From positions 1 through 61,223 of the forward strand of contig MEDY01000153.1 of NCBI GenBank assembly GCA_001724265.1: a stretch of DNA of 61,223 nt. The letters are read 5' to 3'. This DNA is from Rhizaria sp. SCN 62-66. Lineage: Eukaryota. Both the position numbers and the translations under genes were made by a program. The notes beneath the pieces were generated by a model. It did not search any database. It was not told the origin of the DNA and was given only the letters and a program-made list of their open reading frames with translations. Positions 1 through 50,087 of this stretch are shown piece after piece (position 1 is the stretch's first letter; each line of letters starts with the position of its first letter).

Positions 1-23
1 GGCGAGACGGATGGGGGACGTAC

Positions 24-138
24 GGGAAGTGCCGTTCTTGCCGATGACGGTGGCCTCGTTGGGGTCGAGCCAGACCTTGCCCTTGCCGCAGGACATGACA
101 GAGGCAGCCAGGCGCTTCTGGAGCTTCAGACTCACCAT
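24..138 (-). CDS. RPL19: 60S ribosomal protein L19 (eL19), first coding exon; gene continues off the left edge
   Basis: Minus strand reads [38 protein letters not shown], matching the eL19 N-terminus ([20 protein letters not shown]). A GTACGT donor follows at 23. Not in the ORF track. Confidence 0.93.
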
Positions 139-143
139 GTTTG

Positions 144-258
144 CTATAGCAGAGGGAGTGATAAACGCAGTGGGAAGGAAGCGGTGTGAGGAAAGAGTCG
201 TGATGGGGCAGGGTGAACATTGCAAGAGAACTCAGCGACACGGTCTCGAAGAGCTCAC
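144..258 (-). other. Probable 5'-UTR intron of RPL19
   Basis: GTGAGC donor at 258, pyrimidine-rich body on the minus strand and a TATAG acceptor 5 nt before the ATG. Confidence 0.5.
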
Positions 259-764: not shown

Positions 765-2486
765 TTAGAGCAGAATCTTGTACTTTTCATTTGAAGGCAC
801 TGATCCAATGAGCACGCGGCCATCAATCGAGACCGAGGCAAACACCCAAGGGCTCGTCGCAGACCATGTGATGCTATGACAGGAAAGAAAGAAATATACC
901 AATGATGTAAAAAAGAGATGAGATGATACGTACATTGCAGGTCGTATTCAATCATTAAAAGGTAATACATGGTCGTTAGTTGTAGTAGTTGTAGCTGAGA
1001 TACAGATATATAACCAGCACAATTGACATATGTTCAAGTCAAAAGGCGAAGCTTCATGAAAGCGCAACATCTGTTTCACGTCGCCGTTCGTTCTAGTTTC
1101 ATTCAAAGCGTACCTGTGGATGGTGTCCTCGTGCTCGTCCATGTGACAGAGCATGCGGTCCACGACTTCCCCTTCGCTGCCCTCGCTCTCGCCCTCGCCA
1201 TCCTGGTCCTGGCCGCTGCCGCTGCCGCTATAGCCGTGGCTGTGGCCGTAGCCCTGGATCGCGCCCTGGCCGGCCGGGCCGCCCTTGGCGCCCTGCGCGG
1301 GCTCGAAGCTGGCTTGCGGCACCGAGGACACGGACAGCGCGCTCCACAGGGCGACCACGCTGTCGTCGCCCGCCGTGATCAGCAGCTGGTCATGTGACTG
1401 GTTGTACGCCACCGCCGTCAGCGACGCCGCCGTGGCCGCCAGCGCGAGCAGCGGCTGCAGCGGGCGCCGCTCGTCCCACACGCGCACGTGTCCGTCGGTG
1501 CCCACCGTTACGACGGTGTGCGGCCGGTTCGGATTGACATCGATGGCCGTGACGGCGCCGGCGTGCGCCTGGCGGATCACCGCCGTCTCAGCCATCGTGC
1601 GCACGTCCCACGCCCGCAGCGCGCGGCCCGACGCCGTGTAGAAGGCGGCGCCCGGCCGGTGCGGGTCCCAGCACAGCGCGGCGAGAGGCGCCGTGAGCGC
1701 TGTGGACGTGACGGCTGTGTGGCCGATGTCCGAGGAGCCCTGGTCGATGTCCCACAGGTACACGTGGTGCGCGTGACGCGTGAGAACCTTGCTCACGGTC
1801 GCCGCGGCCGCCACCGACGCCGAAGGTGACGTCGCGCCTGCGGCGCTGTTGGGCGGCGGGGGGCACCAGGCGACGGCGCCGCGCGGGCCCGCAGGCGTGG
1901 CCGGCAGCTGGTACGCCGTCGGCAGCGTAAAGCGCGCCGTCGCGGGGTCCGCCACCGTGCCGAACAGCGTCGCGGCGGGCGGCAGCGCGCCGGCGCCCGC
2001 GGCCGCGCCCGAGGGGGAGCCGAAAGGCCCGCCGGCGGCGAGGGCGGCGGCGGCGTGGGAGAGGCCTGGAGGGAGCACGGGCGCGGGGGCCGCGGTGGGG
2101 ATGCGCAGCGTAAGCAGCGCCTCGGGTGCAAGCGTCGTGGTGTCGGCGGCGGCGGCGGCGGCCAGGTCAGGGACCTTCCAGAGCGTGGCGACGCCGCAGT
2201 CGGTGGAGGCGATGTGCTGCACGGTGAAGTAGCGGTCCGAAAAGGCTGGGGACGTCGTGATACCTGTGATCTCGGCGTCGGAGTGGCGCAGAGTGAATGA
2301 GTCGCGCAGGGTCAGCGCCTCGTCGTCGTAGTCGAAGACGTGGACCTCGTTGGGCGCCTCGGTGGTCGCTGTGCCTACCAGGAAGGTGTGGGCTGAGGCG
2401 GGCGCGGATGCGTTAGGGACGAGCCCAGCGACGGGGCCAGACGCCAGCGGGAGGTTATAAGACGAAACGGGGGCGTGAGAGGCCAT
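765..2486 (-). CDS. EIPR1: WD40 protein EIPR1/TSSC1 (EARP/GARP interactor); exons 2486-1114, 873-765; 493 aa; stop TAA
   Basis: FLVGT..NEVH N-terminus, WDPH and DVNPNRPH WD repeats, YNQSHDQLLITAGDDS. The spliced C-terminus EHEDTIHSITWSATSPWVFASVSIDGRVLIGSVPSNEKYKILL matches the TSSC1 tail. Confidence 0.88.
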
Positions 2487-2920: not shown

Positions 2921-5900
2921 ATGTCTGCCACAGGCCCTGGACCCAGCGCTCTCATTGGCGCAGCTGGCCTCGGAGATCCAGCCTTGCCCTCCGGCGCGCC
3001 TGCGCCTGACCATCACCATATGACGCATGTACCAGTGTTATTTAACTCCTCTCCTGCGCACGGAGACCCCGCGGGCCTGCAGTCTTCCTCACACGCAGCC
3101 TCCGACGTGTCACCCGTTGCGCTCTCCCAAGCCCCCACAGCCGCCGTCGCCGCCGCCGCATCACAACTTGCGCCCGCCGCTGCCGCCGCTGCCCCGCTTA
3201 CCGACCTGCCCCTTGCCGACGCTTCCGTTGACAGCAGCACAACAGACGACGCCTCCGAGGCGTTCCTGGAGGAGGAAAGCCGCGACTATTTCGACGCAAC
3301 CCACGAGTTCAAGCTCCTTCCTGCCGCCACCGTCGCCGCCACCAGCTCCCGTCGCGCGCGCCCTTCCCGCCGCACCGCGTCGTCCGGCGCAGCCCCCGTC
3401 ATCGAGACCGAGCCCCAGCCCACCGGGACGCCTTCGACTGCGTCCTCGGCGGTGGCCTCGGCGGCGTACCGCGGGATCTTCGACGAGGTCGACGACGGGT
3501 CGCGCCCCCCGGGCCACGACATCGTGCCCTTCCTCACGCTTGCGGAGCTGCGATCCTTCTTTCTCGACGGCGGCGTCGCGCTGCTCGACGATTCTTTCAC
3601 GCCCGAAGGCGACCCGTGCCCGCACGCGCGCTGGGACGGCGCCGTAGCCGTGGCGGCCGCCGAGGCCGACGAGGCCGCGCAGCTCGCCATCCTGCGCCAG
3701 TCCCCCAACGCCGTCGCGCGGGACCTAGCGGCCGCCGTCTCACCCTCCGCGCCGGCCTTTGCGGGCGCCGCGGCGGGGGACGACGGGTGGCGCGCGCGCG
3801 TGGCGACGGGGCGGCCGCCGGAGTCGTTCGCGTCTCTCGACGAGGTCAAGCGCTTCCGAAAGGCCGCTGTGGGATCGATCAAAGAGGCGGCGCATCTGCT
3901 CGATGTGTTTGACCACTACGCGGCGTACCACCACGCCACCAAGGGCATGCTTAAGCGGCAGGAGGCGCAGATCGACCGACTGGAGTGGAAAGCGCGCGCT
4001 GTGCTGGGAGATATGAGGAGAAAGTTCCTCCAGAGGGAGATGTGCACCGACGAAAACCAACAGTTTCTCACAGAGCTCCTCCGCACTCAGGTACGATTAA
4101 TAACACAATCACTGAATACCGTAGCTTTTTTATCAAACCCAAGTTTCCCTAATTTTGTGTATTTTAACTCACCAGTGACTTCTTGCGTCTTGGCTCGTCG
4201 TTTTTGGATCCAGGCCCTGGGCGACCCGCGCGTCGACTTCACCCGCGTGCGCGACCTCTGCCCGACGAACCGCCACCTGCCGAACCCCGACAAGGTGCGC
4301 GCCGCGCTCAAGCAGTGTGCGCGCGACTGGAGCGTCGAGGGCGAGAAAGAGCGCGCATCGTGCTACGGCCCCATTCTCGAGGTACGCAACTTGAACAAGC
4401 TCCTAACCCGGTCGCCAGCAACGGATCACTTGAATATACCAGTTTGTTTGTACTCTACTGTTACGCTTGTTGCAACCATTTTTTTCAGTGTTTATGAGAA
4501 GTATGATAGCACACAAAATATTTCTAACCTAGTTCTATCATTTTTGTTGTCTGAATCTCACGCGATACGCAGACACTGACGCGTTTGTTTCCTGACGAGG
4601 ACGCTCGTGGGGACCTCGCAGTCTTGGTCCCTGGCACAGGCCTCTCTCGCCTGCACTATGACATCGCCCGCATGGGCTTCCAGTCCCACGGCGTCGAGTT
4701 CTCCTACTACATGCTGCTCCCGGCATACTACCTGCTTAATTGCGTTGAACGCAAGGAGCAGTGGAACATCTATCCCTGGGTCCACGCCTCCAGCAACGTC
4801 CGCGCCTCTGTCGACCGCGTCACTCCCATCAAAGTACGTCTCGTTTTTCCCAAACCACATCGTCGCGCGAAGTGTCATTTCATTATTTAGATAGACATGT
4901 TGCATTCTACACTGTTTCAACTCATTTTCCTTCTCCCGTATTTTGTTTCTGCTGTTGCAGATCCCCGACCTGGTGTGCGGGTCGGTTCCGCTGGCGCCCA
5001 AAGCCGGCGAAGGCTTCCGCATGATGGCGGGTGACTTCCTCGACGTCATGGGTCCCCACACGGCCGACACGTACGACGCCGTAGTGACGTGCTTTTTCAT
5101 CGACACGGCACACAACGTGCTCGACTATCTGCGCCGCATCTCGCTCGTGCTCAAGCCTGGCGGCAAGTGGATCAACCTCGGACCCCTGCTCTACCACTTC
5201 GCGGACCTGGTACGCGCTTAAATATGATATTTGTACTGTATACTTAATGCGCCGCTGTTGAATTTGGTACCGTCCACAATGTTTATTACCGCTCTTCCTC
5301 AACGACGCAGGTTCACTCACTTTAAGCCATCTTTTCTAACATCGTCGCTTCACCATGAACTTCCCCGTTTTTCTCTATTCCATGTATGTCTACCCTCTCT
5401 AGCCTGGTGAGGAATCGATTGAGCTGGCCTGGGACGAAATTCGCGCCGCAATGGTGTCTTTCGGCCTGTCGCTGGACACCGAGTCGTTCGACAACATTGC
5501 CAACTACGCCGTCGCGCCCCACGCCCTCATGGCCACAACTTATAAGTACGTTTCACGAAACACGCATATATACGGCGCAAACGCACTCCCATTGAAAGAT
5601 TGACTCTGATGAAACTAGGAGCGTTTCTTTACACATGTGCGCTCTTGATTTTATAGCGTCAACGCGATGTATCCCTCTTCGTATGCCCTATTTCACATCC
5701 ATTCTTGCTCACCATCACCGCTTTCTACATGCACTTCTGTCCGCAGCTGCGTCTTCTCCGTGGCGACCAAGACTTCGGACACGACCGACACGGACGGCTG
5801 GGACCCGACCGTGTTGACCGCCATCCTAACCGCGGGCGCCATTGCCGACGCGCAGCAGCAGCAGCAGCAGCAGCAGTTGCTGGAGCAGCAGCAGCTTGAT

Positions 5901-5979
5901 CAGGGCCATGACCATCAGAAGCACGCCCGCAGGCAGATGCGCAAACAACAAAAGCTCCTGTAGCAGCAGCAGCAGCAGC

Positions 5980-6020
<41 letters not shown>

Positions 6021-6275
6021 AGTCAGCCACAAGCCCCAGAGGATTCCGCCTTGCTGCAACAGCAGCTCCAGCAGTTGCAGCAGCTGCAGTTTCTGCACAA
6101 GCAGCTTCCGCAGCAGCAACATCAGCAGCAACAGCAGCGCAACCCTGCTCACAGCCACTCTCACGGCCACGGTCACGGCCACGGTCACGGTCACAGCCAT
6201 GGACTAAGCGGCAGCCCTTGCGGCGGCCACGACGACGGCAACGGCGACGGCAGCGAGTATAGCCACGCGCAGTAA
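2921..6275 (+). CDS. CARNMT1: Carnosine N-methyltransferase (N2227 family); exons 2921-4090, 4214-4381, 4573-4833, 4961-5209, 5403-5545, 5747-6275; 839 aa if TAG 5961 and 5985 are sense; stop TAA
   Basis: Motifs KVRAALKQCARDWSVEG, VLVPGTGLSRL (SAM binding), EFSYYML, AGDF, VVTCFFIDTAHNVLDY, LKPGGKWINLGPLLYHF, ESIELAWDEI. All five introns are GT-AG and keep frame. Under the standard code the CDS would end at 5963. Confidence 0.88.
5853..6137 (+). repeat. CAG/CAA trinucleotide (poly-Gln) tracts in the last CARNMT1 exon, containing two in-phase TAG triplets
   Basis: (CAG)n runs are directly visible; TAG at 5961-5963 and 5985-5987 are in register with the CAG units. Confidence 0.9.
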
Positions 6276-8450
6276 GTAACGGGTGGCATCCACTGTTCTC
6301 TGATGTCATACCTGTGCACAACACTTATCTTATGACTGTACTGTTGACTGGCCAGTGTTGAATCTTAGCCACTATCGCTTTCATCGACACAACTCTCTCT
6401 ACTCGTAGGATTAACTGCGTGTAGTAAGTTTAATAATTATGGTCACAATTACTATATGAATCGCGCGTCAAGTCGACATTTGTGCGCTGTTTTTTGCAGA
6501 CTACACGCACGGCTAGCACAAACGCCATATCAAACACCCACTCATTCACTCATTCTTTCACCCACCACATCGAAACGCAAACCTTTGACCTCTAAACTAA
6601 CGGACCACTGCTGTAAGTCGCTCCGAGCCTGGCAGACACGAACGCGGACTCTGTGATACTGATTTCTTCACTATGTCCGTGCGCGCGCGTGCCTGCTCTC
6701 TGCACTTTCATGTGCAACAAACATGACTCTTACGCATGTTGACGTATTTGCGTCGGGTTAATTTCTTTTATATACCGATCCTAGTTTTTATGTGTTTTTT
6801 TTTCGTTTTTGTTTTAGTGGGTGCATTTAGTTCTTTTTTCAACTCTAAATGTCGCATTCAATCTGAACAAGTTTACCACACCGTTTTTATCCGGCCTTTC
6901 TCTGATATATTGTTTTGACTCTATTTTGTTCTGTCATCTGCCTGACTTTTTGTTTGATTTTGTTCTATTATACGTATGTCTTTTAGATTTGTACATCTCA
7001 TTGCTCTGTTCCTGCGTGAGTCTGCCTTGATCTGTGTCAAACTGTATAGTCTCTTGTAACTTCATAATAACAATTGTAATTGCTACGGCAAAAACGCCGC
7101 ACGAACGCGGCATTTTTTTTTCTCTCATTCCACACCATTCCATGACAATTTACCATCTCTTTTTTATTTTGTTTGAACGTTAAGCTGATTTTACTTATTC
7201 TAGTCAAAGCACTACGATTCTAAAGCCAGTCTCAGTCCCTGTGTCCGTCGTAGCTCCGAGTTTCTGTTGCCTGTTTGCCTGTTTGTCACAGCCACGGTGG
7301 TTCTTACCTCGCGTTTGCTGCGGTCGATTGCCGCTCACTCCGATGTCCTCACTCTTGCTGCCTTCAAGCCTGCTTCAGCCACTCTTGTGCTACTCACAGT
7401 CACTCGCCATTGCTCTCAGTCCCTTGCACTGCGCACTGACGCGATCGCAGCATGTCGCCGTGACATGCTGCCTTGCTTTGCGCACCCGCGTCTCCTCGGT
7501 TGTACAATGTTGCCACCACTCTGACACCTTCGACATTTTGCATATTTATTGCACTTTGCTTTCAAGTGCACACGGCATCGCGACTCTACACTGCGTGTAT
7601 ATTGTTGTGTTTAGGTCTGCTCCTTTGTTGCGCACCAACACTGGCGCCACCCAGCGGCTATCTTTACTGCCGTTTTTGTCGATAGTCTACATACTATTAT
7701 TACTGTTCCCTATTTTTTGTGTATTTCTGATTTGTTTTACCTCTACTCTGTGTTTATTTTTCTTGAAACCCCTTCAACACTCCCCTGACCCGCTTTCATT
7801 ATTTGAATCTGTTCTCCCTCTCATCACACTCCTGTTTCTGTTTGGACTTGCGATACATGTCGATACCTCGCTTTTTTGGCTCATTTTTTGTGTACGCACG
7901 ATACTGCTGCGCTGCTCAATATCCATTCAATTCGCACTCTTTGTTCGTTTAATGGAGTCACAATGAGTTTAGCACTGCGTGCCCTTTCACACATCACCGT
8001 ATGTTGTTTCTGTTCCCTGCGTCGACCGCAACACCAAGCACTATTTTGTGTTGCTTCAACCCTTATTTGTATGTGTCTATTTTCATTTCTTTTGCCTTGT
8101 ATTTTTCATCGCTTCTGTGACCCTTTCGCACTTGTAGCTCCCATTGCTAGTACCTGTTCGTTGGGCTTCTTCTGCGAGTAGCCCTCTCATAACGAATCGT
8201 ACGCATAACCCGTCGGCCCGACCGTTGTCAGCTGTTACGGTACTTTACATATAACACGTTGGCCCGGTCGGCGTCCGTTCGTTACACCAGCAATCAGAGA
8301 CTTTTTTCCTCGTGTACATACTGGATCTTACATGTTCCTCTTCAGTGTCTGTTTTGTTCATGCGTCTTTTTTTGTTTTTTCTTGCCTGTCCTCATGTTGC
8401 TCCTGCATTCCTGCGGGCATTAAATGTGACCCCGCAGCTCGAGAGACCCG

Positions 8451-8482
8451 CACAAACACACACACACAACACACACACACAC
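8451..8482. repeat. Imperfect (CA)n microsatellite
   Basis: cacaaacacacacacacaacacacacacacac. Confidence 0.8.
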
Positions 8483-8829
8483 TTCCTCACTCCCCCATCC
8501 GCCCAGACTCTTCTCTGCTTGTCACTCGCAGTGCTGAGAGTTCTGATCCCCAAACAAATAAGCTCGCGCGCACTCTCGCCCTTTCAAAAATACAATTCCC
8601 GACAAATGAATGCTTTATAAACGTGTCTCTTGTGACAAGCCTGGTGATTTCACACGTCGTGACAAAAATATAATGACTCGTGAGCTTTCTTATTGAACTG
8701 ATTAATAAAGGGTCAACTTTTAATGATAATAATTGGTAGCGATTAACAGTTGCTCTTGGATAAACCGATGTTATCGGGCAAACCTCTGAAGGCTATTGGC
8801 TTGTCCCAGCTTGTAGTGATCAGCGTTTC

Positions 8830-11800
8830 TTAGAATGCAGACCCAGCCGCCCCTCCACGCGTGTTGACCTCTGCAACAAACTGCTCGTAGTCAGTCTCCA
8901 ACTTGTGTCCGCCAAAGCAGCCGCGGGGCCCGGCACAGCGGCAGGTGCCGCCGTACTGCGCGGGCAGCTGGTCGGGCGCGATGATCTCGAGCAGCGTCTT
9001 GGCGGCGTCGGCGCCGTTGCAAATCATTGTCTTCTTGATGGTGCGCTCGTGCAGCAGCGGCTTGACAACCTTCCAGATCATGTTGAACCACGACGGTACG
9101 TTGATGACGACGATCTTGGCGCTGCGCACGGGGTAGTGCGCTTGCAGAAGCTTCGACACGGACTTGACAAAGCTCATGGCGGAGCCGCCAATCATGTCGC
9201 GCATGCCGATGCCCTCCAGGTCGAGCACGGTGACGCACACGGCCTCGAGCCGGTTGTCCAGCACCGACCACTGGTACTCGCAGTTGTGCAGATAATGCAT
9301 CTGCAGGGCCTCGTCGCTCACGCCCGCGGCCTTGATGGTCTTGATGTTGAGCTTTCCGGGCCGCTCAATGTACACAAAGTGGCCGTCGCGCGAGTGCCCG
9401 TGGAACACGTGCCCGCACAGCTCGCGCACGCGGCTAAACTTCGGGTACGGCGTCGCGAGCAGCGAGTTGATGCCGTGCTCGGCGCGCCAGCGCTTGGTTT
9501 CGACCCAGCGCACTTTGGCCTTGGCCACGTCGCCCATCTCGGCCGCCACGTAGCGGCTCGGCATGTCAAAGCACAGCCGGTCCAGCACGGCGGGCGGCAG
9601 CGCCGTCGCGGCGGGCGGGAAAGGCCGGTCCTCGTTGCGCCACGTGAGGTTGAACTGCGGGTGGAACACGGTGCGAAGAGCCTGTACGTAACAAGTTAAG
9701 AAACAAACGCGAATATGAAAAAAACGGATTGGCATAAGAGGAATAGAACAAAGAAAAACAAGAAATTATGTAAAAGATCGAAGATCGTATGTAGTTGCAG
9801 TTTAATTGCTACCCACGTCGTTGTCCGTACCTCGTCTGGGTTGAGGTTCACCGGCTTGTTGCCACAGTGCTCATGGTCAAACAGCACCCAGTGGCGCGTG
9901 GGGTCGCCGCCGAGGAAGCCGCCAATGCCCTCGCCGGCGCCCGCAGTCGCGACTCTGGCGCCGCCCGCCGCGGCCGTCGCGTCTGCCGTGACGCCGGCGC
10001 TGCTGTCGGCGGGCGTGGCGTACGACTCAGAGAACGGGTTGGTGTCGATGAACGCGTCATCCGTCGTCGCCGTCTCCGCGCCCGCGCCGCCCGCAGCCGC
10101 AGCGGCCGCAGCAGCAGCAGCCGCCGCAGCAGCGCGACGCCGGCCGCCCCCGGTCCCGCGCCTGCCAGCGCCCGCGCCGCCGCTGCCGGCGCCGCTGCTC
10201 TGCGTAAGTGCAAGCTCTCTCAGCACGAAGGCCCTGATACGAGCGCGCTCCTCGCGGACTTGCGCGCGCGCGCGCTCGCGGGCCCAGGTGGTAGCGCCCA
10301 CGGCCGCGGCGGCGACGGCCGCGCCTGCGCCGACTACGTGCCACAGCGACACGGGCGCGGCCTCGGTGTAAGCCTGCGCGAGCGAGAGCAGCACGCGCGC
10401 GATGAGCGCCAGGCAGCTCAGCGCGCCCACCAGCCGCCACGCGCGCCGCGCCGCGCCGGCGCCGGAGCCTGCGGAGGCGGACGAGGACGAGGCGTCGCCG
10501 TCAAGGGTGTCTGCGGAGTCGCCCGCGGCGGCCGCGGCGGCGAGCGCAGAGTCAACGCTCTCCATCGCGCTCTTGGTCAGGCTGCCACTGCTGCTCGCAC
10601 CGCTGCTGCTCGCACCGCTGCTGCTGCTGTTGTTGATGGTGCTGTTGTTTGCGCCACTCACGCTGGCGTTGGCGTGGCTGGGGCTGTTGTTCTTGTTTGC
10701 TGGGACTTGACCTGGGGCGATGTAGGTACCTTCGGCGCCCCCCTTAGACCCAGCACCCTTAGACCCCGCGCCCGCGTTGACACTGCCGCGGTGGCCATTG
10801 ATGTGCCCCTGCGCCGCACCGGCGCCCGCAGTCGTAGACGCCACCGCGGCCGCGGAACCACTGGCGGAGAGCGAGAGCGAGAGCGAGAGCGCGGGCGCAG
10901 TCAGCGGCGCCGCGCCTGCGGCCCCGCTGTCGCCCGAGGAGGCCGATGGCGTGAAGGGCGGCGACGTGGCGGACACGCGCCGCAGCGGCGACATCGGCGT
11001 CGTCGGCCGCCGTGCGCCGCCGCCGTTGCCGCCGCTGAGGCTGCCGCGCGGGCCCCCCGCCGCTGGCGTCCCGGGGGCAGCAGCGCCGGCCGCGGCGCCG
11101 CCGGCGGTGGCAGTGCCGCTGGCAGCGGCCGAGGAGGAGGAGGAGGAAGAGGACTGGTGGCTGTGCGCGCGCATGCGCAGCTCGCCGAGGCTCAGTGTGC
11201 TGCCGTCACTGGACGAGAGACTACTCCTGGCGCCGCCCCCGCTGCCGTAGCCGTGGCCGTGGCCGCTGTGATCGGCGTCGGCAGCTGCGTGGACGCTGGC
11301 GGCCTCGCTGTGGCCGCGGCTGTCGCCGTCGCCGTCCTCGTCCTCGTCCTCGTCCTCGTCTTCGTCGTCGTAGCGCATCTCAGCGTCCTCCCAGTCGCTG
11401 TCGTCCTCGTCATCATAGCCGTCTCCGTGTCCGTGCCCGTGGCCGTGGCCGGTGGGGTGGGCGCCGCCCTTGTGACTGCGGGCCTCGGCGCGCGCGGCCG
11501 CCTCGGCCGCCACAGCGGCGGCCGTCGCAGCGGCCGTCGCAACGGCTGCGGCGGCGGCGGCTTGGTTGTGCGCATGCACTTGCGTATGCGACTGTAATTG
11601 AAGTTTACCGGGCGTCGCAGCAGCAGCACCAACAGCGGAAGTAGCAGTCGCAGTTGAAGTAGTGGCGGCAGCAGCAGCCGCAGCAGCAGCCGCAGCAGCA
11701 GCAGCCGGCGCAACACCGGCGGCCCCGCCGTTCGCTGCATTGCTGCCGCTGGTGGCGGCGGCGAGCGCGGCCTCCGCAGCCACGGCGGGCGGTGGCGCCA

Positions 11801-13472
11801 CAGCCGGGTAGATGACGAAGGTGAGGTCGAGGCCCTTGCCGTCGCACACCACAAAACCGCCCGCCTGGCTCGAGTCCTCGCAGAACGCGCCCCCGCCGCC
11901 CCCGCCTACACTGGCGCTGGCGCCGGCGCCACTGTCGGAGACGGAGGAGGACGACGGCTGCAGCGCGCGGCCGCCGAGCTGCGGCGTCGCCTCGCTCTGC
12001 GCGAAAGACTGTGAGTGCGAATGAGACAGTAGGTGCGCGGGCAGCGCGCCGCCGGCCGGCGCGGCGGGCGTGGCGGGCGCCGAGGCCGTGACCGCGATGC
12101 TCACAGAGTTGGATCTGCTCGAGCCCACGGCATGCCCGTGAGAGTCCAGCAGGGCGATTGCCCCGCCGACCATGACGCCGCCGCCGGGGCCGCCCGGGGC
12201 GCCGACAGCAGTACTCACGCCGACAGCGGAGCCCGCTGCGCTCTTGCCGTCCTTGCCGTCGCCCGCCTTGGCGTCTTTGCCACCGCTCTTGGTGTCCTTG
12301 TCCTTGCCCTTCTTGGAGCCGCTCGAGGCGACGAGCGAGCTGGCGAAGGACATGAGCTTGCTCTTCTTGGGCTTGAACGCCGTGAGCCGCTTACTGTAGC
12401 GCGACATGGACCGGTTGGCGGTGTCGATGTCCACGAAAACGGGGTCGCCCACGCGCACCGGCGCCAGCGGCGGCTTGTCGGCCGACGCGAACGACACGTG
12501 GAGCTCGCCGCGCGTGTGCCGCGGGCGCGGGCCGATGTAGCCGGTGAGCCAGCCAGTCTTGTTGTTCCACACCGCGCCCGACTGGTCAACGAGCACGACG
12601 GTCATGCCGTACAGCACGGGCTCGCGCAGGCGGTGGCGCAGCACGTCCTAGTTCACCGCCGCGTTCGTCGACAGCACCGTGAACACGTGCGGCACAAACC
12701 GCGCCGCGCTACCAGCAACGCCGGACTGCGGCGCCGCACCGCCCGCACCGCTCGCAGAGCCGAGGCCCGCGGCCGCGGGGCCGTGGCTCGAGGCCGAGGC
12801 CGCGGAGGCGGCGATGGACGACGTCGACGTCGAGTGCATTAGCCCGTCGCCCGCGCCCGCCGTCCCCGCCGCAGCCGCCGCGGACGACGGGTCGGCAGGG
12901 ATGTAGAGCGAGCGCACGTGGGGCGGGATCGAGGTCACGATGCCGTGGCCTTTGTACGGCGCGGTGACGTAGCCGACGAAGCCGCCCGCGGAGCAGGGCG
13001 CGTAGGGCGACACCGTGAAGAGCTTGATCTGATCGCCCAAGTACAGGCGTGAGCCCCACGCGCCCGCCTGGTTCGCGCCGAACGTCGTGGGGCCGCTCGC
13101 CACGGGCGCGGAGGCCGGGGCCGCGCTCGGAGCAAAGGCAGCGCTGCTCGCGGCTCTACTAGCGTTCGTAGCAGAGGTGCCAATGTTGCTGTGATTGTTA
13201 CTGCTGTTGTTGTTGTTGAGGACGGGGGAGGTGGGCGGCGACAGAGCCGGTGCGGGTCCGGGGGTGTATGGCGTCGCGGGGTACGCGGCAGCAGACGAGG
13301 CGGAGGCAGAGCCCGCAGGCGTGGCATGGCCGTGCGTGTTGGCGTTGGCGTACAAGCTGAGGTTGGGGTATGAAGGAGACTTCACCGGGGTCGTCGGGTA
13401 GTGCTGCGGGCCTGAGACGCCGTTACTGGCGGCTAAGCCCGGCGCCGCCGAGTAGCCGGGAAGGTGGGACAT
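8830..13472 (-). CDS. Large CRAL-TRIO/Sec14 lipid-binding protein with an N-terminal globular domain and two predicted TM helices; exons 13472-9831, 9681-8830; 1497 aa with in-frame TAG at 12648-12650; stop TAA
   Basis: C-terminal Sec14 motifs (WRAEHGI, FHGHSRDGHFVYIERPG, VLDLEG, HYPVRSAKIVVINVPSWFNMIWKVVKPLL, IAPDQLPAQYGG). ORFs 12648..13658 and 9696..12644 are in the same frame and separated only by TAG-GAC. GTACGG..ACAG intron at 9830-9682. Confidence 0.8.
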
Positions 13473-14417
13473 CGCGCGCGGGGCGAGCAGGGAGCCGCGG
13501 GAGGCGCCGGTGGGGCGGGGCCGGGTGCGCGGGGGGAAGCGAGGCGAGAAAGCGCGAACGAGGTGGTTGGGTGCGAGTCGACGCTGAAAGTAAAGACAGT
13601 ATCGAGGTGTGATAAGATATGAGTACGTGAATATGATAGAGTGTGAATAAACACACATGGGAAATGTGGTGGTGAATCGCCAGCCACGTGTTGATGTAGG
13701 CAGTGACGCGCTTGAAATGTGGCCGCGGCAACAATGCTAACGGCGCGCGACCACCCTTTTCGCGACACGATCGTCTTAGTACATTTAAGAGTTGTTAAGC
13801 CATCGTTATGGTATCTTATGGAAGCCATTTGCAATATACGTATACTGCAACGAAAAGTTGCAGCAACGTCGCGAATACTCGACTGTATCGTGTTTACCAA
13901 CCACCTCTCCGCCTTGGACTGGTACGTTGTCCCGATGCTGCCTAACGCCGAAGGAAGCCGAACAACACCATTTTTGCATACAGAAATCTCAAACAATACA
14001 GTACGACTAAAAGAAACAACATATACTGTACAGTGAAGTGTGTGAATGATTAAAAACATATATTTATTAGAATAAAGTATAAAGCTCGCGTGCCTATTCT
14101 CACACAGCTGCATGCGTAACACAGCAGTGAGACTCCTGAGGCACGCCGGTAGCCATGAATATACGTCATAAAAAACGCTTGTAAGTAACACGGGAGGGCC
14201 AATCTTTTCTCAGATCATATCATAAACAACATCTCCAACAAAAGAAATACCAACAACAACAACAACCACAGCAGCATCGGGAGTAACAGCAGTAGCAGAA
14301 GATGAAAGGAACGCACAACACTGCGAGTCAAGACTTAACTCAACAACACACAGTGTTCACGCCGACACATCTCTCTTTCAGAGCTCATGCCGTTCTCGCC
14401 GTCATCAGCCGGCTACT

Positions 14418-16962
14418 TCATGAGCGGCCTCCGAAGCCGCCGCCGCGGCCGAAACCACCGCGGCCACCGCCACCGCCGCCGCGGCCGCCGCCGAAGCCGC
14501 CGCCGAAGCCACCACCGCCGCCACCGCGGCCGCCGCCGCCGCCGCCGAAGCGGCGCTGCTGCCAGCTGGGCGGCGGGGGACGCTCGGGGGCGCGCTCCTG
14601 GAGCTCAGGCAGCGCGTCGGGGATGGACACGGTATACTTGTAGTCCTGGATGTTGCTGACGATGTCGCGCACGTCCGAGGGCACGTCGAACACGGCACCC
14701 ATCTGGTCCGCGGTGAGCTTGATGCCCTTGACCTTCTCGTCGTTGCCCTCGGGGTAGATGTGGCGGCGGATGAAGTTCCACACCAGGCCGAGTGAATGCA
14801 TGCGCTCGTTGCCCGCGATGTACACGGTGATGTGGTCCGACAGCGACGACAGAAGCGAGCGCTCCTTGAGCGGCTCCGTGTTGCCCGAGATCACGGCCAG
14901 CGCGGCCGACACGGCCCACAGCCCGCCCTTCTTCTCGATGATCGCCTTGGCCGTGTCCTCGAACGTCGGGATCACCGACTCGTGCACGGACATGAGCTGC
15001 TCCAGCGCCGCGTACGCAGAGGCCTTGATAATGTGCGACTGCGAGGGCACCGACAGGCGCTCGAACTTGAGGTTGATCTTGCGCTCGATGTTCTGCAGCG
15101 TCCACATCTGCTTGGGCGTGTAGAAAGTGATGCACGTGCCCGTCTTGTTGGCGCGGCCCGTGCGGCCGGAGCGGTGGACGTACGTCTCGACGTTCTTGGG
15201 CGGCTCGGTGTTGATGACGAGCTCGACGTCGGGGATGTCGATACCGCGCGCTGCGACGTCGGTGGCGATCAGCACGGGGAACTTGCCGTCACGGAACGCC
15301 TTAAGCGTCGCCTCGCGCTGATTCTGCGGGATGTCGCCGTGAATCGCCTGCGCCTCCGAGGCGAAGCACGCCAGGATCTCATTGGCCTCGCGCTTGGTGT
15401 CGACGAAGACGATGCTGCGCGCCTTGGCGCCGCCGTGAACGAGGATCACCGTCGACATGACCTGGTTGCGCTCCGTGTAGTGGCACGCCATCGCCTTGTG
15501 CGTCACCGACACAGAGGCCTGGATTTTCTGCGACTTGACCAGGTCCACCGACACGGGGTCGGGGCGCTGGAACTTGCGCGTGACCTGCTGGACCCACTCG
15601 GGCAGCGTGGCCGAGAAGAGCAGCGTCTGCAGCGGGACAGGGCCGTCGCGGGGCACAGACTGCGGGGCGGTTGTGAACGGGAGAAGGAAACAAAGAAACA
15701 AGATACAAGATGAGAAGTGGGAATTAGTGGCAGTTTAAGTTTAGACGTACGACCAAGAAAACAAAACACAAGCAAAGACGCTACATTAAGACATCAGTAA
15801 GATGACAGGATATGATGTGAAAGCGTGCGTACCTGGAGGATGGTCTCGACGGCCTCCTGGAAGCCCTCGTTGAGCATCTCATCAGCCTCATCGAGCACGA
15901 CGTACTGGATGTTGGAGAGCTTGAGGGTGCCGCCCTCGAGCATGTCCTTGACGCGGCCGCACGTGCCGACGATGACGTCGATGCCGTTGCGCAGCGCCTG
16001 GATCGCGTCGCGGTACGAGGTGCCGCCGTAGATGCAGATCGTCGACAGCTGCGGCGCCGTGAGCTCGAACTCCTTCGCGATCTGCAGCGACAGCTCGCGG
16101 GTGGGCGACAGCACCAGTACGCGCGCGAGGCGCGACTTGCTGTTGGCCGCCGCGAAGCCCTGCTCGGCGTTCTGGCGCAGCAGCTTCTCCACGATGGGAA
16201 GAGTGAAGGCTAGGGTCTTGCCCGTGCCCGTGCGCGCGCGGCCGATGACGTCGTTGCCCTCGATAATCGCCTCGAACGTGGCGGCCTGGGAGGGGGAGTG
16301 CGAGAGATTATGAGACGGAAGAACAAGTGATTGGTGTGAGTGGAAATCATTAATACAGGAAGACAAAATATAGGCAATGTGTTATCAAAGAAGTTGATAA
16401 TAAAGAGTGATGTAAAACGTGGAGTTATACGTACCTGAATGGGGAACATGTGGGTGATGCCGCGCATGGCGAGGGCGCCGACGACGGTGGGGTTGATGGG
16501 GAACTCCTTCGTCGGCGGGTTGCCGTGCTCGTCCGGCTCGTCGGGGTTCGCGCCCGTCTTGGCCTTGCGCCGCTCGATCTCAGCCGTCATCGAGTCGACC
16601 TCGCTGAGCGCGTACGACGACGCAGAGTTGGGCGGCGCCAGCTGCACGATCCGGTCGCGGTCCTCGGCCGGGGCAGCCTTCTTGGACTTCTTGGTGCGGG
16701 CGGTGATCTCGACGTCGGAGGCGAGATCGTCGTCGCGGTCCTCCTCGTCGTCGTCGGAGGCGGCGACGTAGACCTTCTCTTTCTTCTCCTTCTTCTCCTT
16801 CTTCTCCTTCTTCTCCTTCTTTTCCTTCTTCTCCTTCTTGTCCTTCTTCTCCTTCTTCTCGGAGACCTCGTCAGCCTCAGCGGCGACGCGCTTGAGGGAC
16901 TTCTTGACCGGCACGTCGGACATCTCGTCCTCGCTGACAGGATCGACAACCTTCTTAGCCAT
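14418..16962 (-). CDS. DDX21: DEAD-box RNA helicase DDX21/DDX50 (nucleolar RH7-like) with GUCT domain and RGG tail; exons 16962-16435, 16285-15833, 15659-14418; 740 aa; stop TGA
   Basis: FPIQ, ARTGTGKTLAF, PTREL, LDEAD, SAT, HGDIPQNQRE, ATDVAARGID, YVHRSGRTGRA; Lys/Glu-rich N-terminus and GGRGG C-terminus. Confidence 0.92.
16776..16860 (-). repeat. Coding (KEK)n repeat (AAGGAGAAG units) in the DDX21 N-terminus
   Basis: Tandem cttctcctt units on the plus strand. Confidence 0.85.
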
Positions 16963-17616
16963 ACTGAGTCGGTTCTGTGCGGGCACGAGCAAGAGCGGGA
17001 GCAGGGGGCAAAGGGAGTGGCGGTTAGGTGAACAATTTGCGGGTATGGACAGTGAGGAGGATAGATCGCATTTCATGGCATCGTAAAAAAGTCAAAAGAT
17101 AAACACATCCGCGCTAATGCTATTCTGCAAATCAGTTTGTCTTCTGATGAAAGCAAGAAGGCATAAGAAGCAAGTTGCCGTGACGGCAAACCCGGGCAGT
17201 CTACGCCAGCCGCTGGCCGCAGTACAGCCACGATTCGAAAACGGCTCGCTCGGCCGGCCAGCCGACTGTGGGCGGCGCTCACAGTCACCGAAGGTCCTGA
17301 GAGCTCTTTTGCAAGACCTTCGTGATGGTGTTGAGTGTCTGCGTAGACTTGAATGCAATTGCAGTATAATATGCTGCCATCTTTTTTTGTGGTGCTCCGC
17401 TTTTTATACGTCTAATAATGGATGTCTTGCCCAACTTCCACCTTCGGAATTTCTTCCGGGTGCTGCACTATAAGCCATCCACCCAACTTATCTCACAAAC
17501 TCATGCTATATGCATGCTTCTATAACAGATTTCATAACTGATTCGGTATATAAACGCGCGGACTCTTGGGACAAACTTGACTTGCTCTTGAAATCCCGGC
17601 TCTCTGACGCCGCACA

Positions 17617-19392
17617 ATGTCGTCCTTGGCTCCCCGTCTGCGAGCCTTGCTGCCTCTGCAGGCGCTCGCGCCCGCGCCCAGCGTCGTCGCCTCGCTGCTT
17701 CCGCGTCACGCTGGCCCGTCTCCACCCTCATCGATCACGCCGCCTTACGGATACGCCCAGCTGATGGCCTCCGAATCGTCTTCCGCGCGCCCCCGCCCAT
17801 CGGCAGCCGCCGCCGCTAAGGTCGCCTGCCCGCGTCTCCCCAGCAACAATATCTCCCGCTCTGTCTTCGCAGCGTCAAGCCTGAGCCGCCCCGCGCGCGG
17901 CCTGCGTGCGCCCCAGTCGGCGCCGCACCGGCCTTTCTACTTGTCCGCGGGCGGCAGCGGCGGCGGCGGCGCGGGGAGCCCCAGTCCGCCGTCGTGGGCG
18001 CCCCGCGCGCTGGCGCCTCTCGACACGCCCTACACGGCGACGCCGCGCAGCGTGCTCGTGATCAAGAAGTGGGGCTCCCGCAGCGCGACGCGGTACGCCA
18101 ACGACGTGGCGGCGCTGCTGACGGAGCGCGGCGTGCAGGTGTTCATCGAGCCCACCACGGTGCTCGACTATGACGAACACACGCAGTACCCCACCATCCT
18201 CGACCTCATCGCGCGCGCCGACCCAGCTGCCGAGAGCGTGTTCACGCACAACTTCGCGCCCGTTATCACAGACTCGTTCACGTTCGGGCACAAGGCGCTT
18301 GCGAGCAACGGCGGCGGCGGCGCCAGCGCGGGCTTCTACAGCCCAAGCTCAGACTCGGTCTCCACGTCGACCGCAGAGAGCTCCGCTGCATCAAACGCCA
18401 ACTCGAGCCCTGGCTCTGGCCTCAACCCCGCTGCCGCCGCAGAGCCGAGTCGCGAGATCCCGGACTCGGACATCTCGTGCTCGTCGTCCTGGGCGGGCTT
18501 CGCGCGCGCCCCGGCCCCCGCCGCGGCACTATCGGCGCTGGACCCGCGCGAGTGCATCGCCTACGCGCGCAAGCTCGACTCGTGGCAGCGCCATATCGAC
18601 CTGGTCGTCTCCATCGGCGGCGATGGCACGCTGCTGCACGTTTCCACGCTCTTCCCGCACACCGTGCCGCCCACGCTGGCCTTCGGCTGCGGGTCCTTTG
18701 GCTTCCTCATGCCGTTCAACCCCGACTTCGCCGGGCTCGCCATCGACGCGCTGCTCGCGGGCCGACTCCGCGTGTACAACCGCTCCCGCCTCGCCTTCAA
18801 GGTCGGTGGCGTGGCGGGCTACGACGCGCGCGGCTCGCCCTGGGTGCCGCCCTTCTCGGCCACGGACCCGCATTGTTACCACCTGCTCAACGAAGTCGTG
18901 CTCAAGCACTCGTACGGCCTTAACGTCGGTGCCGGCGTGAGCGAGATCGAGTGCCGCATTGACGGAGACGTGCTGGCGCGCTTTCAGGGCGACGGGCTCA
19001 TGATTGCCTCCCCGACGGGCTCCACGGCCTATAGTATGGCGGCGGGGGGCAGCATCGTGCACCCCGCGCTGCAGTCGATCCTGATCACGCCCATCTGCCC
19101 GATGACGCTGTCCTCGCGCCCGCTGGTGCTGCCAGGGCAGAGCACGGTGACGCTGACGCCCATACACGATGCCGTGTTGCTCGAGGGTAAGTTCGGCCGC
19201 GTGATTCAGCCGCTCGAGGTGGTGACGGTGCGCCAGAGCGAGTACCCCGTGCCCGTGTTCGCGCGCATGTCCGTCACCACCGACTTCGTCACGGACCTGG
19301 GCTCACGGATGAACTACGCGCGCATGGTGCGCGTGCGCCGCGACGAGCCCTCGCTGCTGCCGCATCTCGCCAACGCCACCGCCACTGCTACA

Positions 19393-19442
<50 letters not shown>

Positions 19443-20253
19443 TAGCAGCAGCAGCAGCAGCAGCAGCATTGATGGCAGCAGCAGTAGCAGCAGCAGTATG
19501 GTGTCAGACACGGTCACAGCGAGTGCAAGTGTGTGCGCCAGCGCGCCCGGCGCGAGCGCGAGCGCCAACGGCGCGGTGCCTGCGTGGCAGCTGTCGGGCG
19601 TGTCGCTGTCGCCGTCGTCGGCACACCTGCACGCGCGCGAGGCGGCGCAGCACGCGCAGCACCAGCAGCACACGGCCCTGTTCGGCGGCCAGCTCGTGGG
19701 GCCCGCGGCGGGCGGCGGCGGCGGCGCGCACGGCCGCGACGGCGCCGGCAGCGGCAGCAGCGGCAGCAGCGCGGGCGCGGACGTGAGCGCCGGCAGCGCG
19801 CCCGGGGTTGTGTTCGTGCCGTCTAGCCACGGCAACACGTTCGACGGCCACGCCAACGCTTCCAACGCCACGGTGACCGCTGGCCCCACTGACGGCGCCG
19901 GTCGGAGTAGTGATGCTGCTGCGAAGCACAAGGTGGGCGAGGCAACGGCCAAGGGCTCGAATGGCCCTGCTGGTGCGGCTGCTGATAGCAACGCTGCCGG
20001 TGATAATGCAACGCAGGATGGGTTTGACCCTGTCGCTGCGGCCGTCAACAACGCCGCACAGCTGCAATAGCAAGCGCAGGCGAAGCAGGCTCAGCGGCAG
20101 CAGAAACAGCAACAGCAGAAGCAACAACAACAGCAACAGCAGCAGCCGCAGCAACAGGCCTTCGGTCCGATCGGCTCGTTCATGTCGAAGCGCGAGCAGG
20201 AGGAGGTGACCAAGGACCGGGACATCGACGGCATGGGGCGCGCTCGCAAGTGA
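17617..20253 (+). CDS. NADK: ATP-NAD(H) kinase, possibly mitochondrial; single exon; 878 aa if TAG 20068 is sense; stop TGA
   Basis: VSIGGDGTLL, LLNEVVL, GDGLMIASPTGSTAYSMAAGGSIVHP, ITPICP..LSSRPLVLP. The Arg/Ser/Ala-rich, acid-poor N-terminus resembles a presequence. The standard code would stop at 20070. Confidence 0.9.
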
Positions 20254-20941
20254 CTAGGACTATGAGTCTCTGTGACTTGACTGTGAGCTGCAGAAGACGA
20301 TGTACATCAGCGATATCAATTCGGTCGTCTTGATCTTATCTAGCACCATTATAAGTGGTCTCTTTCTATATTTATCGTGATCTGTTTATTCTCATTTCAA
20401 AGTCACACATGATACTGATCGTTGATAAAAATACACATGCAATCAGCATCGTCTAACCCAAAGCAAAAAGTGAACAAAACAGAATGTATTAAATTTGTTG
20501 CATGAAGCAATATCAAGATTCTTGCTCTCAAGTGGAGAAACTCCTCAACAATGCTCTTAGCACGTCAAAAGCTCCTCAAAGAAACAGAAAAAATACACAC
20601 TGGAATCTTCTCATACGACTCATACGACTATCACGTTGTTATCCATTTGATGATGGAGATTGCTGGTGTGCTGATTCTCGCAAGGAAGAGAGAACCTAGC
20701 ACCAAACAAACATAAGACAAAGAAAAAAGAACAGAAACAAAACCACACCCACTTTGGCGAGACATAAGTAAGAGACAGTCTCTTTACTTTACTTCTCGCA
20801 ACTCAACATGAGACACACATATCACTTGTGTCGTCGTCAATACAGCTTAAACCACAAGATCAACCCTCTTCCACTCATAGCAGCAGCGTCGTAACGTAGG
20901 ACTAACTGACCGACTGTTTGATTGGCTCGGCAGCGGCACGC

Positions 20942-42981: not shown

Positions 42982-43650
42982 ATGTGCTCGTTTACCTGCT
43001 GCGGCACGTGCTGCGGAAGTACGTCTCTTAACCATTCCGTTGGTTTCTCTTATTGCACTTCATCCCTCTGTCTATGCCTTGAACTACTTAGTCTTCTCCT
43101 CGCCACCACCTCGTCATGCTTCGCTCTTTCGTCCCTCGCTCCCGTCCCCTGACCGCTCCTTGCTATTCCCTTTGCCTGCCTCCACACTGCTCTCCATACT
43201 CCCCCACGCAGGTTTCTCCATGTTCGGACTCATCTTCCTGGTACGTTCCTCGCGTAACCCTCCGCTCCCGCCCCTCCCTGTTCCCAAACTGCGACAAACT
43301 CCGCATCTGTGAACCGCCCTCCACGCCCATCCTGTCATTCACAACCAATCCCTCTCACTCTCACGCTCACTCATTCTTCTGTATCACTATCCTCTCCTTC
43401 TGCTACCACTCCTCGCGCTCTTGTTTCCGTCCAGCTTTGCATCGGTGGCATCATCGACAGCGGCTCCCACTCGATCAACATCGCCGAGTCGTCCCGTGCC
43501 GACGCCGCCAACAACGCCTACGTCGGCGCCGCCATCTACGCCGCCTTTGTCGGCGCCTCGATTATCATGTACTTCTTCGGCCGCTGGCGCTCCCGCACCC
43601 TCGCTGCCGCCAACGCCTCCGCGCAGCCCCTGCTCGAGAACCGCTACTAA
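42982..43650 (+). CDS. RNASEK: RNase kappa / V-ATPase subunit f-like small two-TM protein; exons 42982-43018, 43212-43240, 43435-43650; 93 aa; stop TAA
   Basis: Spliced product MCSFTCCGTCCGSFSMFGLIFLLCIGGII..AANNAYVGAAIYAAFVGASIIMYFF fits the CC..S.FG.I.L / AA.Y pattern of the family. Two GTACGT..CAG introns keep frame. Confidence 0.72.
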
Positions 43651-44502
43651 GTCCCCCCGCCCTTTCCAGCATGTTATTCCTAGTTTAGCTTAATATGGTG
43701 TTTGTGTGAGTGGTAGTGGTCACTGGGGGACGCAGCGCGCATGCGCACTTGCATGTCGCGCGGACCCTTGCTCTGTTCGCTTTTTTCCCTTCTCAGGCTC
43801 TCTCCCCTACGTGCTCTGGCGTTTTAACTCACACCCAGTCGAGTCGTATCTCCAAGCGTGGCCGCTTGCTCGCATTTATCGTTCTCGTGTCCTCACTGTA
43901 GCCAATCGCGACAGTTATGCTCTCACAAGCATGCTCGAACGTCGGGCTCTGTTGTGCGTCGTCGGGCCACTCGCAGGCAGCGCTTGGGACTCGCGCGAGC
44001 TGTAGTTGAACACAACAGAGGCGGTATGCTCTTGCTACCGTGAGTGAATCTGCTAGATACGTTCGTCATGAGAGAGTTTTGTGGTGAATTTTGCCGTGAA
44101 CAGAGGCGCTGACGACGCTTACCCGTCAATTTCGATAGTATTTCTCTTCAGTTTCGTTTCGTTTCTTTATTCTTTCTTTATTCTTTCTTTTTTACACATT
44201 TATTTTGTTTTCTTTTGATTGATGTTCGTTTGTATCTGACGTGTGCAGTCACGTAACGAACATCAACGCCCAACGTTACAAATATACTCCAATAAAAACA
44301 AAAATATCTCAATTTAAAAACCCGCAAAATCTGTATTAAAACATAAAGAATACATTGTGAATCTCAAAACTACCAAACAACTACCATAAACACGACAATC
44401 AATAACCATAGAAAGTTATCATCATATCTTAAGTGAGCTTCTCTCAGCTTAACTAAACACCAGCCAGACAGTCCAGCAACACAGAAAGAGCAGCCTCTGC
44501 GC

Positions 44503-49121: not shown

Positions 49122-50087
49122 GGCGGGGGCTGGTGGTGCGCGGCGGCGACGGCAGCGACGGCGGCGGCGGCGGCGGTGGCGGTGGTGTGTTTAGGTGTTG
49201 GAATCGAAAGAGCTGTCAGCAAACTATAGCTCAGTTTTTTAACGGGGCAAAACTCGATCAATGGGCTACAGAAGAAGCAAAGGTGTCCGAACAAAAGCGT
49301 TTGAGTGAGCCGAGAAGATTGTAGATGCAGAAACATACCAGATAGTGAAGAAGTCAAGGATGAGTTGACTGTGAAGCGCGGAGATTGGACAACGAAATAG
49401 CATAACAGTCTAATCGCCAACAAGAGATCTAGCAGCCGCCTAAGATTATACAAAGGCTGGTCTGTTTTATCGCAAAATTAGAATTTAAACAAAAGCTGCT
49501 GGAAGCAAGAACCAGCTCAAGAAAGTCTTTACACGAAAGCTTGACCAACAGTGTCGGTTCGTGAAAAATAAAAAGCACCACCGCCCACGGTCATCGTTAG
49601 GACGGCAAGCGGTGAGCGAATGACGCAATGTTCGGGCATTCATGAATTGTGGCATATCTATCGATAAAATAGCACCGCTGTTTAATATGCGCTACGACGT
49701 GGGTGTGATTCATAATATGACAATTTTGTGTCCCTTGAGAAGGCGTTTTAGCCTGTCGGATGTCTCTAGAGCCGATCATGGCAAACGTAGTCGTTCGCGC
49801 GAACAGACGCGAGCCACGCATCCCCCTGCTCGCGCCGCCCACAAAGCCACAGACCCACCTCCCACGATGTCCGCGCGCACGAAACGACCTCAGTGTCCCC
49901 CTTGATTCTCTCTTTTTCTCTTTGTTCCCGCTTTATCTCACGCATCTATCCCCTCCTTTGTCTCCCCCCTCTCCTGGCCCTCCTTCCGCGCACTCTGCCT
50001 AATCTCCATCGCACGCCAACGATCTCGCTCAAAACCCGATCTTTTTTACTTTTCCTTACTTTCACCGCTTCTGGGTCTGCAGTCGCG

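Follow-up and report, generated by a model that had tools for sequence, protein, structure and literature searches.

Genes of the window and their in-frame TAG codons

The 61,223-nucleotide contig MEDY01000153.1 (assembly GCA_001724265.1, deposited as Rhizaria sp. SCN 62-66), which was analysed over its full length and is called the window below, carries ordinary nuclear eukaryotic genes, three of which contain the codon TAG within a reading frame that appears to continue through it. Over these 61 kb, GC-rich and strongly codon-biased stretches alternate with AT-rich spacers; in the coding frames the GC content of third codon positions (GC3) is near 0.9, and codons ending in G or C dominate (e.g. 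200 CAG vs. 10 CAA in eight long frames comprising 7,264 codons). Pfam matches identify an EIPR1-like WD40 protein, CARNMT1, a CRAL-TRIO protein, a GUCT-type DEAD-box helicase and NAD kinase (NADK), along with the genes listed further below, and the five introns that could be read off are 152-200 nt long, with a GC content of 0.36-0.46 and 5' splice sites that are GTACGT-like or GTATGC.

Four TAG codons are at issue: two in the C-terminal tail of CARNMT1 (5961-5963 and 5985-5987, forward strand), one in the gene for the CRAL-TRIO protein (12648-12650, reverse strand) and one in the Gln-rich tail of NADK (20068-20070, forward strand). The first-pass annotation of this DNA had taken them as evidence that UAG encodes glutamine here while UAA and UGA remain stops. 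All four were found where it had placed them, and those at 5961, 5985 and 20068 are indeed flanked by CAG or CAA. Its further claim, that GC-rich coding sequence runs on past each TAG until a TAA or TGA at the switch of composition, is borne out by the GC content of the next 180 nt, which is 0.60-0.72 after the four TAGs vs. 0.32-0.56 after the 15 terminators of the window, with each of the four exceeding all of the 15 (Mann-Whitney p = 0.0016). For TAG 12648 and TAG 20068 the pattern goes beyond chance. A six-frame segmentation by codon score (9,152 codons in 106 segments) returned a single stop that lies neither at the end of a segment nor at a splice site, namely the TAG at 12648. Once TAG is read as sense, the remaining "odd" TAGs fall in UTRs, introns or out-of-frame overlaps. 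Candidates that were considered as sense codons and rejected are TAG 5400 and TAG 51048, each of which is the AG of a 3' splice site, and TAG 13003 and TGA 13030 (both forward strand) and TAG 52152 (reverse strand) were rejected as antisense-frame artefacts of the codon score.

A TAG codon inside a conserved domain

The TAG at 12648 stands in the context AAC TAG GAC and corresponds to residue 275 of a protein that starts at 13472, midway in a frame that is open over 1,359 codons once TAG is read. The gene (8830-13472, reverse strand, ending in TAA at 8830) encodes a beta-trefoil-like domain, a long low-complexity linker and, in the last exon (frame 8830-9765), a CRAL-TRIO domain. The region of the N-terminal beta-trefoil-like domain spans 12327-13124, and the TAG is residue 159 of its 266 residues. 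A HMMER search with these 266 residues against 1.84 billion representatives yielded 63 homologues at E<=1e-3, many of which match across the TAG. In the alignment of 22 of them, a conserved F-P-S-x-F-T-V block lies upstream, and the block V-x-Y-G-D..V-L-V-D-Q-x-G-x-V-W-N-N-K..G-Y-I-G-P-R-P-R is kept downstream. The column of the TAG itself falls in a variable loop (17 gaps, three Glu, one Val and one His). In an AlphaFold (AF2) model built from 25 sequences, residues 141-240 reach a block-mean pLDDT of 74-97, and a predicted helix (159-165) between strands 148-152 and 175-179 begins with the TAG residue.

Proteins of Saprolegnia, Pythium and Albugo (four named clusters among the 20 looked up) combine the same N-terminal domain with CRAL-TRIO, which argues that the whole frame from 8830 to 13472 is one gene; many metagenome proteins share this architecture as well (63 matches). 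A protein search aimed at close relatives across the TAG returned Pythium P0252 alone, the query being dominated by low-complexity words. The codon usage likewise runs through: GC3 is 0.90 upstream and 0.96 downstream, the coding score is high in one frame on both sides (0.84 in frame downstream), and every one of the 14 codons from the TAG to the next ATG ends in G or C. An intron across the TAG is ruled out by the local GC content of 0.63-0.85, as compared to 0.36-0.46 in the five introns, and the GT..AG spans nearby are either only 9 nt long or would remove the conserved F-T-V block.

The letters at this TAG are identical in two further assemblies from other studies, with no differing letter in either record (record 4 of X3, covering 11817-14353, and record 11 of X4, covering 12092-12746), so that an assembly error, a possibility that the first-pass annotation had itself raised, does not account for it. 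The public gene call for the locus, P0242 (274 aa), terminates at exactly this codon. Judging from the conservation on both sides, the TAG would split a single conserved domain, and could not act as a genuine stop without destroying a conserved protein.

The N-terminal domain is an observation in its own right. It comprises about 120-250 residues, has no match to any Pfam family and is fused to CRAL-TRIO; the predicted fold is a beta-trefoil of the ryanodine-receptor/MIR-like kind, the top fold matches of the model being the N-terminal beta-trefoils of ryanodine receptors (probability 1.0, with a weak E of 2.8e-3).

A conserved C-terminus beyond the TAG of NAD kinase

The NADK coding sequence (17617-20253, forward strand; Pfam NAD_kinase and NAD_kinase_C, supported by the alignment of relatives) has 878 codons when its TAG (CAA TAG CAA) is read. 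Between this TAG and the TGA at 20251-20253 lie 60 codons, the last 30 of which (20161-20250) form a conserved motif. Four relatives were found by the protein search, at 89, 72, 69 and 63% identity; beyond these, among the matches listed, none exceeds 40% except short ones covering about one sixth of the query. The last 30 residues match, almost throughout, the C-terminus of the relative P0122, whose kinase part shows 89% identity. G853 and K858 are invariant in all five NADK sequences, and the motif is partly kept in three more distant relatives. Its codons have a GC3 of 0.93 and a score of 0.77 in frame as compared to -1.41 and -1.63 in the other frames. The TGA falls in the same alignment column as the end of P0122, and GC drops from 0.61 to 0.43 there.

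It follows from this alignment that the conserved C-terminus would be produced only if TAG 20068 is decoded. The TAG itself lies in a Gln-rich insertion that the relatives lack, and its residue is therefore unreadable from the alignment. None of the listed pieces of other assemblies spans the site; the bin containing it has depth in both X3 and X4 with no differing letter reported, which is weak evidence.

The tail of CARNMT1

The two remaining TAGs (CTG TAG CAG at 5961, after two Leu codons, and CAG TAG CAG at 5985) lie in the same CAG run, about 60 codons past the methyltransferase domain, in the low-complexity, Gln- and His-Gly-rich tail encoded by the last exon (5751-6275, forward strand, ending in TAA at 6273; the Pfam CARME match is on the upstream exon). 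GC by codon position in this tail (0.80/0.39/0.74, and 0.82/0.35/0.76 after the second TAG) resembles the 0.69/0.36/0.86 before the first TAG, and total GC stays near 0.6 until the TAA, after which it falls to 0.45. The codon score cannot separate frames inside CAG repeats, so that these two TAGs are weaker cases, with support from composition. Positions 5843-6023 were skipped as a repeat in the comparison with other assemblies, which places both TAGs outside that comparison.

The spacer that follows (6276-8829), between the convergent CARNMT1 and CRAL-TRIO genes, is unusually long (about 2.5 kb) and AT-rich, and no convincing coding signal was seen in it.

Termination codons

Fifteen gene ends could be assigned in the window, of which ten are TAA, five TGA and none TAG. 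This agrees with the first-pass annotation in that no gene ends in TAG, although its count of 13 other complete genes is replaced by 15 ends, among them those of the three genes with a TAG. One of the 15 is tentative, namely that of the putative last exon of the EIPR1-like gene (765-947, reverse strand), whose GC content of 0.45 is far below that of all other coding exons. Coding score and GC both fall at the gene ends. For two genes the terminator coincides exactly with the C-terminus of relatives: the TGA of NADK, described above, and the TAA of SF3B3 (44503-44505, reverse strand), where the protein ends level with the final residue (1430 of 1430) of P0003, a relative with 61% identity, and GC drops from 0.75 to 0.44. 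Both inspection of the frames and the segmentation found no in-frame TAA or TGA within coding segments of the window, as the first-pass annotation had maintained.

If TAG had a share of 20-30% among terminators, the chance of finding none in 15 would be 0.035-0.005, which is suggestive but not decisive.

Two features of the terminators deserve separate mention. TAA is the commonest of them (10/15) despite a GC3 near 0.9; an argument against TAA from the preference for G over A at third positions was considered but dropped, as some GC-rich genomes prefer TAA anyway. In addition, the base after TAA is G in seven of the eight TAA ends examined, which may be a trace of former TAG stops turned into TAA, or may reflect selection for a strong stop.

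UAG as a probable sense codon

Taken together, the conserved protein sequence that flanks TAG 12648 and follows TAG 20068, the lack of TAG among the 15 gene ends, and the TAA and TGA at homologous C-termini argue that UAG is a sense codon in this organism and that UAA and UGA are its stops. This is what the first-pass annotation had proposed, and we put the probability of this reading at roughly nine in ten. The fuller statement, that UAG stands specifically for Gln with UAA and UGA as stops, is probable, but less so.

Several points weigh against these conclusions and should be kept in view. There are four TAGs in total, and since those at 5961 and 5985 share one CAG run they are not independent; their coding frame is unprovable by codon score, and TAG 5961 may be a real stop before a CAG-rich 3' UTR. 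Three of the four stand in Q-x-Q-like contexts. No TAG falls on a conserved column, and the alignments therefore do not fix the amino acid. Fifteen terminators are a small sample: with a TAG share of 15%, none would be seen with a chance of 0.087. ARAGORN found no tRNA genes in the window, and no eRF1 gene lies in it either. Finally, none of the listed pieces of RNA contigs (X5 and the polyA run X6) crosses a TAG, which leaves room for mRNA editing; some bins are without cover in these data, e.g. 20026-20600 in X6.

The alternative that survives best concerns the meaning of UAG rather than its status. Given that UAG is sense, we consider Gln to be quite probable, on the basis of codon context and of the frequency of UAG-to-Gln changes among known codes, UAG-to-Gln being the usual route of UAG reassignment. 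Leu is the main other candidate, while a single base change also separates UAG from codons for Glu, Lys, Tyr, Trp and Ser. In favour of some other residue one may cite, besides the lack of a TAG on a conserved column, that Leu is the residue second most often adjacent to Gln and that TAG 5961 follows two Leu codons. Nuclear codes with UAG=Leu and UAG=Ser are described as existing (PMC11687900). However, two TAGs lie inside pure runs of CAG or CAA, one transition away from CAG, and three of the four adjoin CAG or CAA. Counted over about 13,300 codons, a Gln neighbour is found for 25.5% of Gln residues, as compared to 9.7% of Leu and 4-9% of other residues. A crude neighbour likelihood ("3 of 4", with a flat prior) accordingly gives 0.73 for Gln and 0.05 for Leu, i.e. 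about 15-fold in favour of Gln, although the two TAGs of a single run enter it separately, which makes it an overcount. Moreover, some genes of the rhizarian exLh use UAG abundantly for Leu, according to PMC5304391, whereas it occurs here four times in about 13,300 codons, as against roughly 470 Gln residues counted (about 1% of their number). We regard an amino acid other than Gln as unlikely.

A standard code with a leaky UAG is less likely still. Here, near-cognate tRNA-Gln would read through UAG in Gln-rich contexts and give C-terminal extensions, and TAG 12648 would be either a site of programmed read-through or a nonsense allele that is tolerated. For the three sites with Gln codons as neighbours, two of them near C-termini, this is a serious rival; in yeast, which uses the standard code, Q-x-Q contexts are reported to promote read-through of stops with insertion of Gln (PMC13192750). 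TAG 12648, on the other hand, stands between Asn and Asp codons, about 275 codons into a gene of about 1,500 and inside a folded domain, where read-through at a low level would yield hardly any of the CRAL-TRIO part. Neither does a leaky stop fit the lack of TAG among the 15 terminators, where an ordinary stop would be expected to turn up elsewhere, nor the NADK motif, which is conserved past its TAG like ordinary coding sequence.

An ambiguous code, in which UAG is sense within genes but terminates close to the ends of mRNAs (the type of Condylostoma and of karyorelict ciliates), seems improbable. Such codes are on record (10.1101/2022.04.12.488043), and 15 gene ends are too few to exclude rare use of TAG as a stop; nonetheless, none of the 15 shows UAG in that second role, and TAG 20068, only 61 codons before the true stop, must still be read.

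Two further alternatives are very improbable. The first is that the TAGs are errors of assembly or sequencing, or nonsense mutations in decaying genes. With GC3 near 0.9, codon usage implies that most single-step nonsense mutations yield TAG, so that the restriction to TAG by itself proves little. Against this stand the identity of TAG 12648 in three assemblies (the window, X3 and X4) and the intact codon bias on both sides. Apart from the TAGs, about 13,300 codons showed neither a frameshift nor an in-frame stop, and decay does not disable three of about 16 genes while leaving everything else intact; it would also leave the lack of TAG terminators unexplained. The second, U-to-C editing that restores CAG in the mRNA before translation, is spoken for by nothing in the window; it would not remove TAG from gene ends, and systematic U-to-C editing is not known as an established mechanism for nuclear mRNAs.

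Mechanism and lineage

In the scenario that we favour, the organism would be an uncultured, intron-bearing eukaryote with GC-rich exons in which UAG is translated, most likely as Gln, and UAA and UGA are the sole terminators. The expected decoder would be a tRNA-Gln with the anticodon CUA, an anticodon that pairs with UAG but not with UAA (PMC5304391). The corresponding eRF1 would be expected to have an N-domain in which recognition of G at the third stop position is lost or weakened, and the change is taken to be genome-wide. The rarity of UAG, its concentration in Gln runs and the dominance of TAA in a genome with high GC3 suggest that the reassignment is young. The data would fit a change that is recent or still little used and came about through CAG-to-TAG transitions, and former TAG stops may have moved one step to TAA. 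Read-through in Gln contexts could, by analogy with yeast, have been the starting point of the change.

As regards the lineage, the named matches to SF3B3 and NADK are about equally distant (34-42%), and the closest relatives among the matches listed are metagenome proteins (61% for SF3B3, 63-89% for NADK). The lineage looks new, and the domain architecture shared with oomycetes is the only hint of its placement. With metagenome proteins as its closest relatives, and no link to ciliates or fornicates in evidence, the code change may plausibly have arisen independently. We tentatively propose, as possible rather than probable, an independent UAG-only reassignment caught early in a previously unsampled, GC-rich, free-living lineage, maybe a stramenopile, in which case it would be the first report of a changed nuclear code from that group. 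Full-text searches, which covered one library of papers only, returned no report of a nuclear code change in stramenopiles or of this organism. An affiliation with aphelids was considered and dropped: Amoeboaphelidium is reported to use UAR=Gln, whereas TAA terminates here, and the listed matches include no relative from the aphelids.

At least three studies have DNA sequencing runs, labelled as bioreactor or wastewater metagenomes, in which the stretch is present. Over up to 2.5 kb, contigs of runs that belong to different studies agree with the window in every letter, and the single difference reported over 17.8 kb of matched contigs is A>G at the intergenic position 8079. Such agreement indicates that one near-clonal organism turns up repeatedly in samples of both kinds.

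Other features of the window

The start of the gene for ribosomal protein L19e (RPL19; 1-231, reverse strand) runs off the left edge of the window. Further genes identified by Pfam encode a transglutaminase-like protein, BRF1, Sec23, SF3B3, an ABCF ATPase and a Seh1/Sec13-like WD40 protein. SF3B3 and several other conserved proteins contain long insertions that are rich in Ala, Gly, Ser and Gln or consist of His-Gly repeats. SF3B3 (44503-49190, reverse strand) reaches about 1,500 codons, as compared to about 1,217 in most eukaryotes; the 61%-identical relative, with 1,430 residues, is likewise long. The metagenome contigs that were scanned gave no matches to the SF3B3 protein or to its alignment with P0003, nor did the genome contigs scanned with the NADK alignment or an exact 40-mer; a scan of viral contigs was likewise empty. 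A strong pyrimidine skew (GC skew -0.30, AT skew -0.32) marks positions 43000-44000 on the forward strand, and within it a small open reading frame (43258-43650, TAA at 43648) may encode a membrane protein.

Implications

Nuclear codes that give UAG and UAA different meanings are few, and each new lineage tests how eRF1 distinguishes the two codons and whether reassignment passes through an ambiguous stage. The present case would add a non-ciliate with GC-rich exons, in which TAG would be expected to be a favoured stop rather than a vanishing one; if true, its base composition runs opposite to the classical expectation of codon capture. An early-stage case, if it is one, would also be a natural test of the route from read-through in Gln contexts to full capture of the codon. 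On the practical side, gene calling under the standard code truncates proteins, as with P0242, so that annotation of the lineage will be systematically wrong until the code is set. Should the reassignment be borne out genome-wide, it would be of high interest.

Comparison with known genetic codes

The codes in which both UAA and UAG encode Gln (UAR=Gln, NCBI table 6) are found in many ciliates, hexamitin diplomonads, ulvophytes, Streblomastix and Amoeboaphelidium protococcarum. They share with the present case the capture of a stop codon by Gln, but in them UAA is also sense, whereas here TAA closes 10 of the 15 genes, in one case (SF3B3) level with the C-terminus of a relative; since TAA terminates, the code of the window is not of this type.

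Codes that separate UAG from UAA are described for Iotanema, Protocruzia, some phyllopharyngeans, exLh, Scotinosphaera and one oligohymenophorean (PMC11687900, PMC5304391). The fornicate Iotanema spirale has the layout proposed here, with UAG as a sense codon for Gln and UAA and UGA as stops (NCBI table 15; PMC5304391). According to the same source, UAA is its main stop, the assignment was derived from 60 orthologues with a likelihood test, and its eRF1 carries T32G in the GTS motif. Unlike that set of 60 orthologues, the present evidence comprises four codons, and the exons are GC-rich, the domain architecture is common with oomycetes and no tie to fornicates was seen. Protocruzia tuzeti and two lineages of phyllopharyngean ciliates have the same codon table, with UAG=Gln, and are cited as independent origins of it (PMC11687900). 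The window, by contrast, shows ordinary spliceosomal genes whose introns measure about 150-200 nt, and the listed matches include no close homologue from ciliates.

The rhizarian exLh resembles the present organism in that UAG alone is reassigned, in an uncultured protist that is known only from sequence (PMC5304391). It differs in that UAG there means Leu and is reported to be the most abundant Leu codon in some genes, whereas here TAG is rare and occurs in Gln runs. Read-through in yeast offers a likeness of another kind, a stop between Gln codons being decoded as Gln by tRNA-Gln (PMC13192750); however, read-through there is partial and all three stops remain in use, while in the window none of the 15 gene ends is TAG and one TAG, at 12648, is read within a domain and in a non-Gln context. 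The layout of the code is already known from Iotanema and some ciliates; it is the lineage that looks new.

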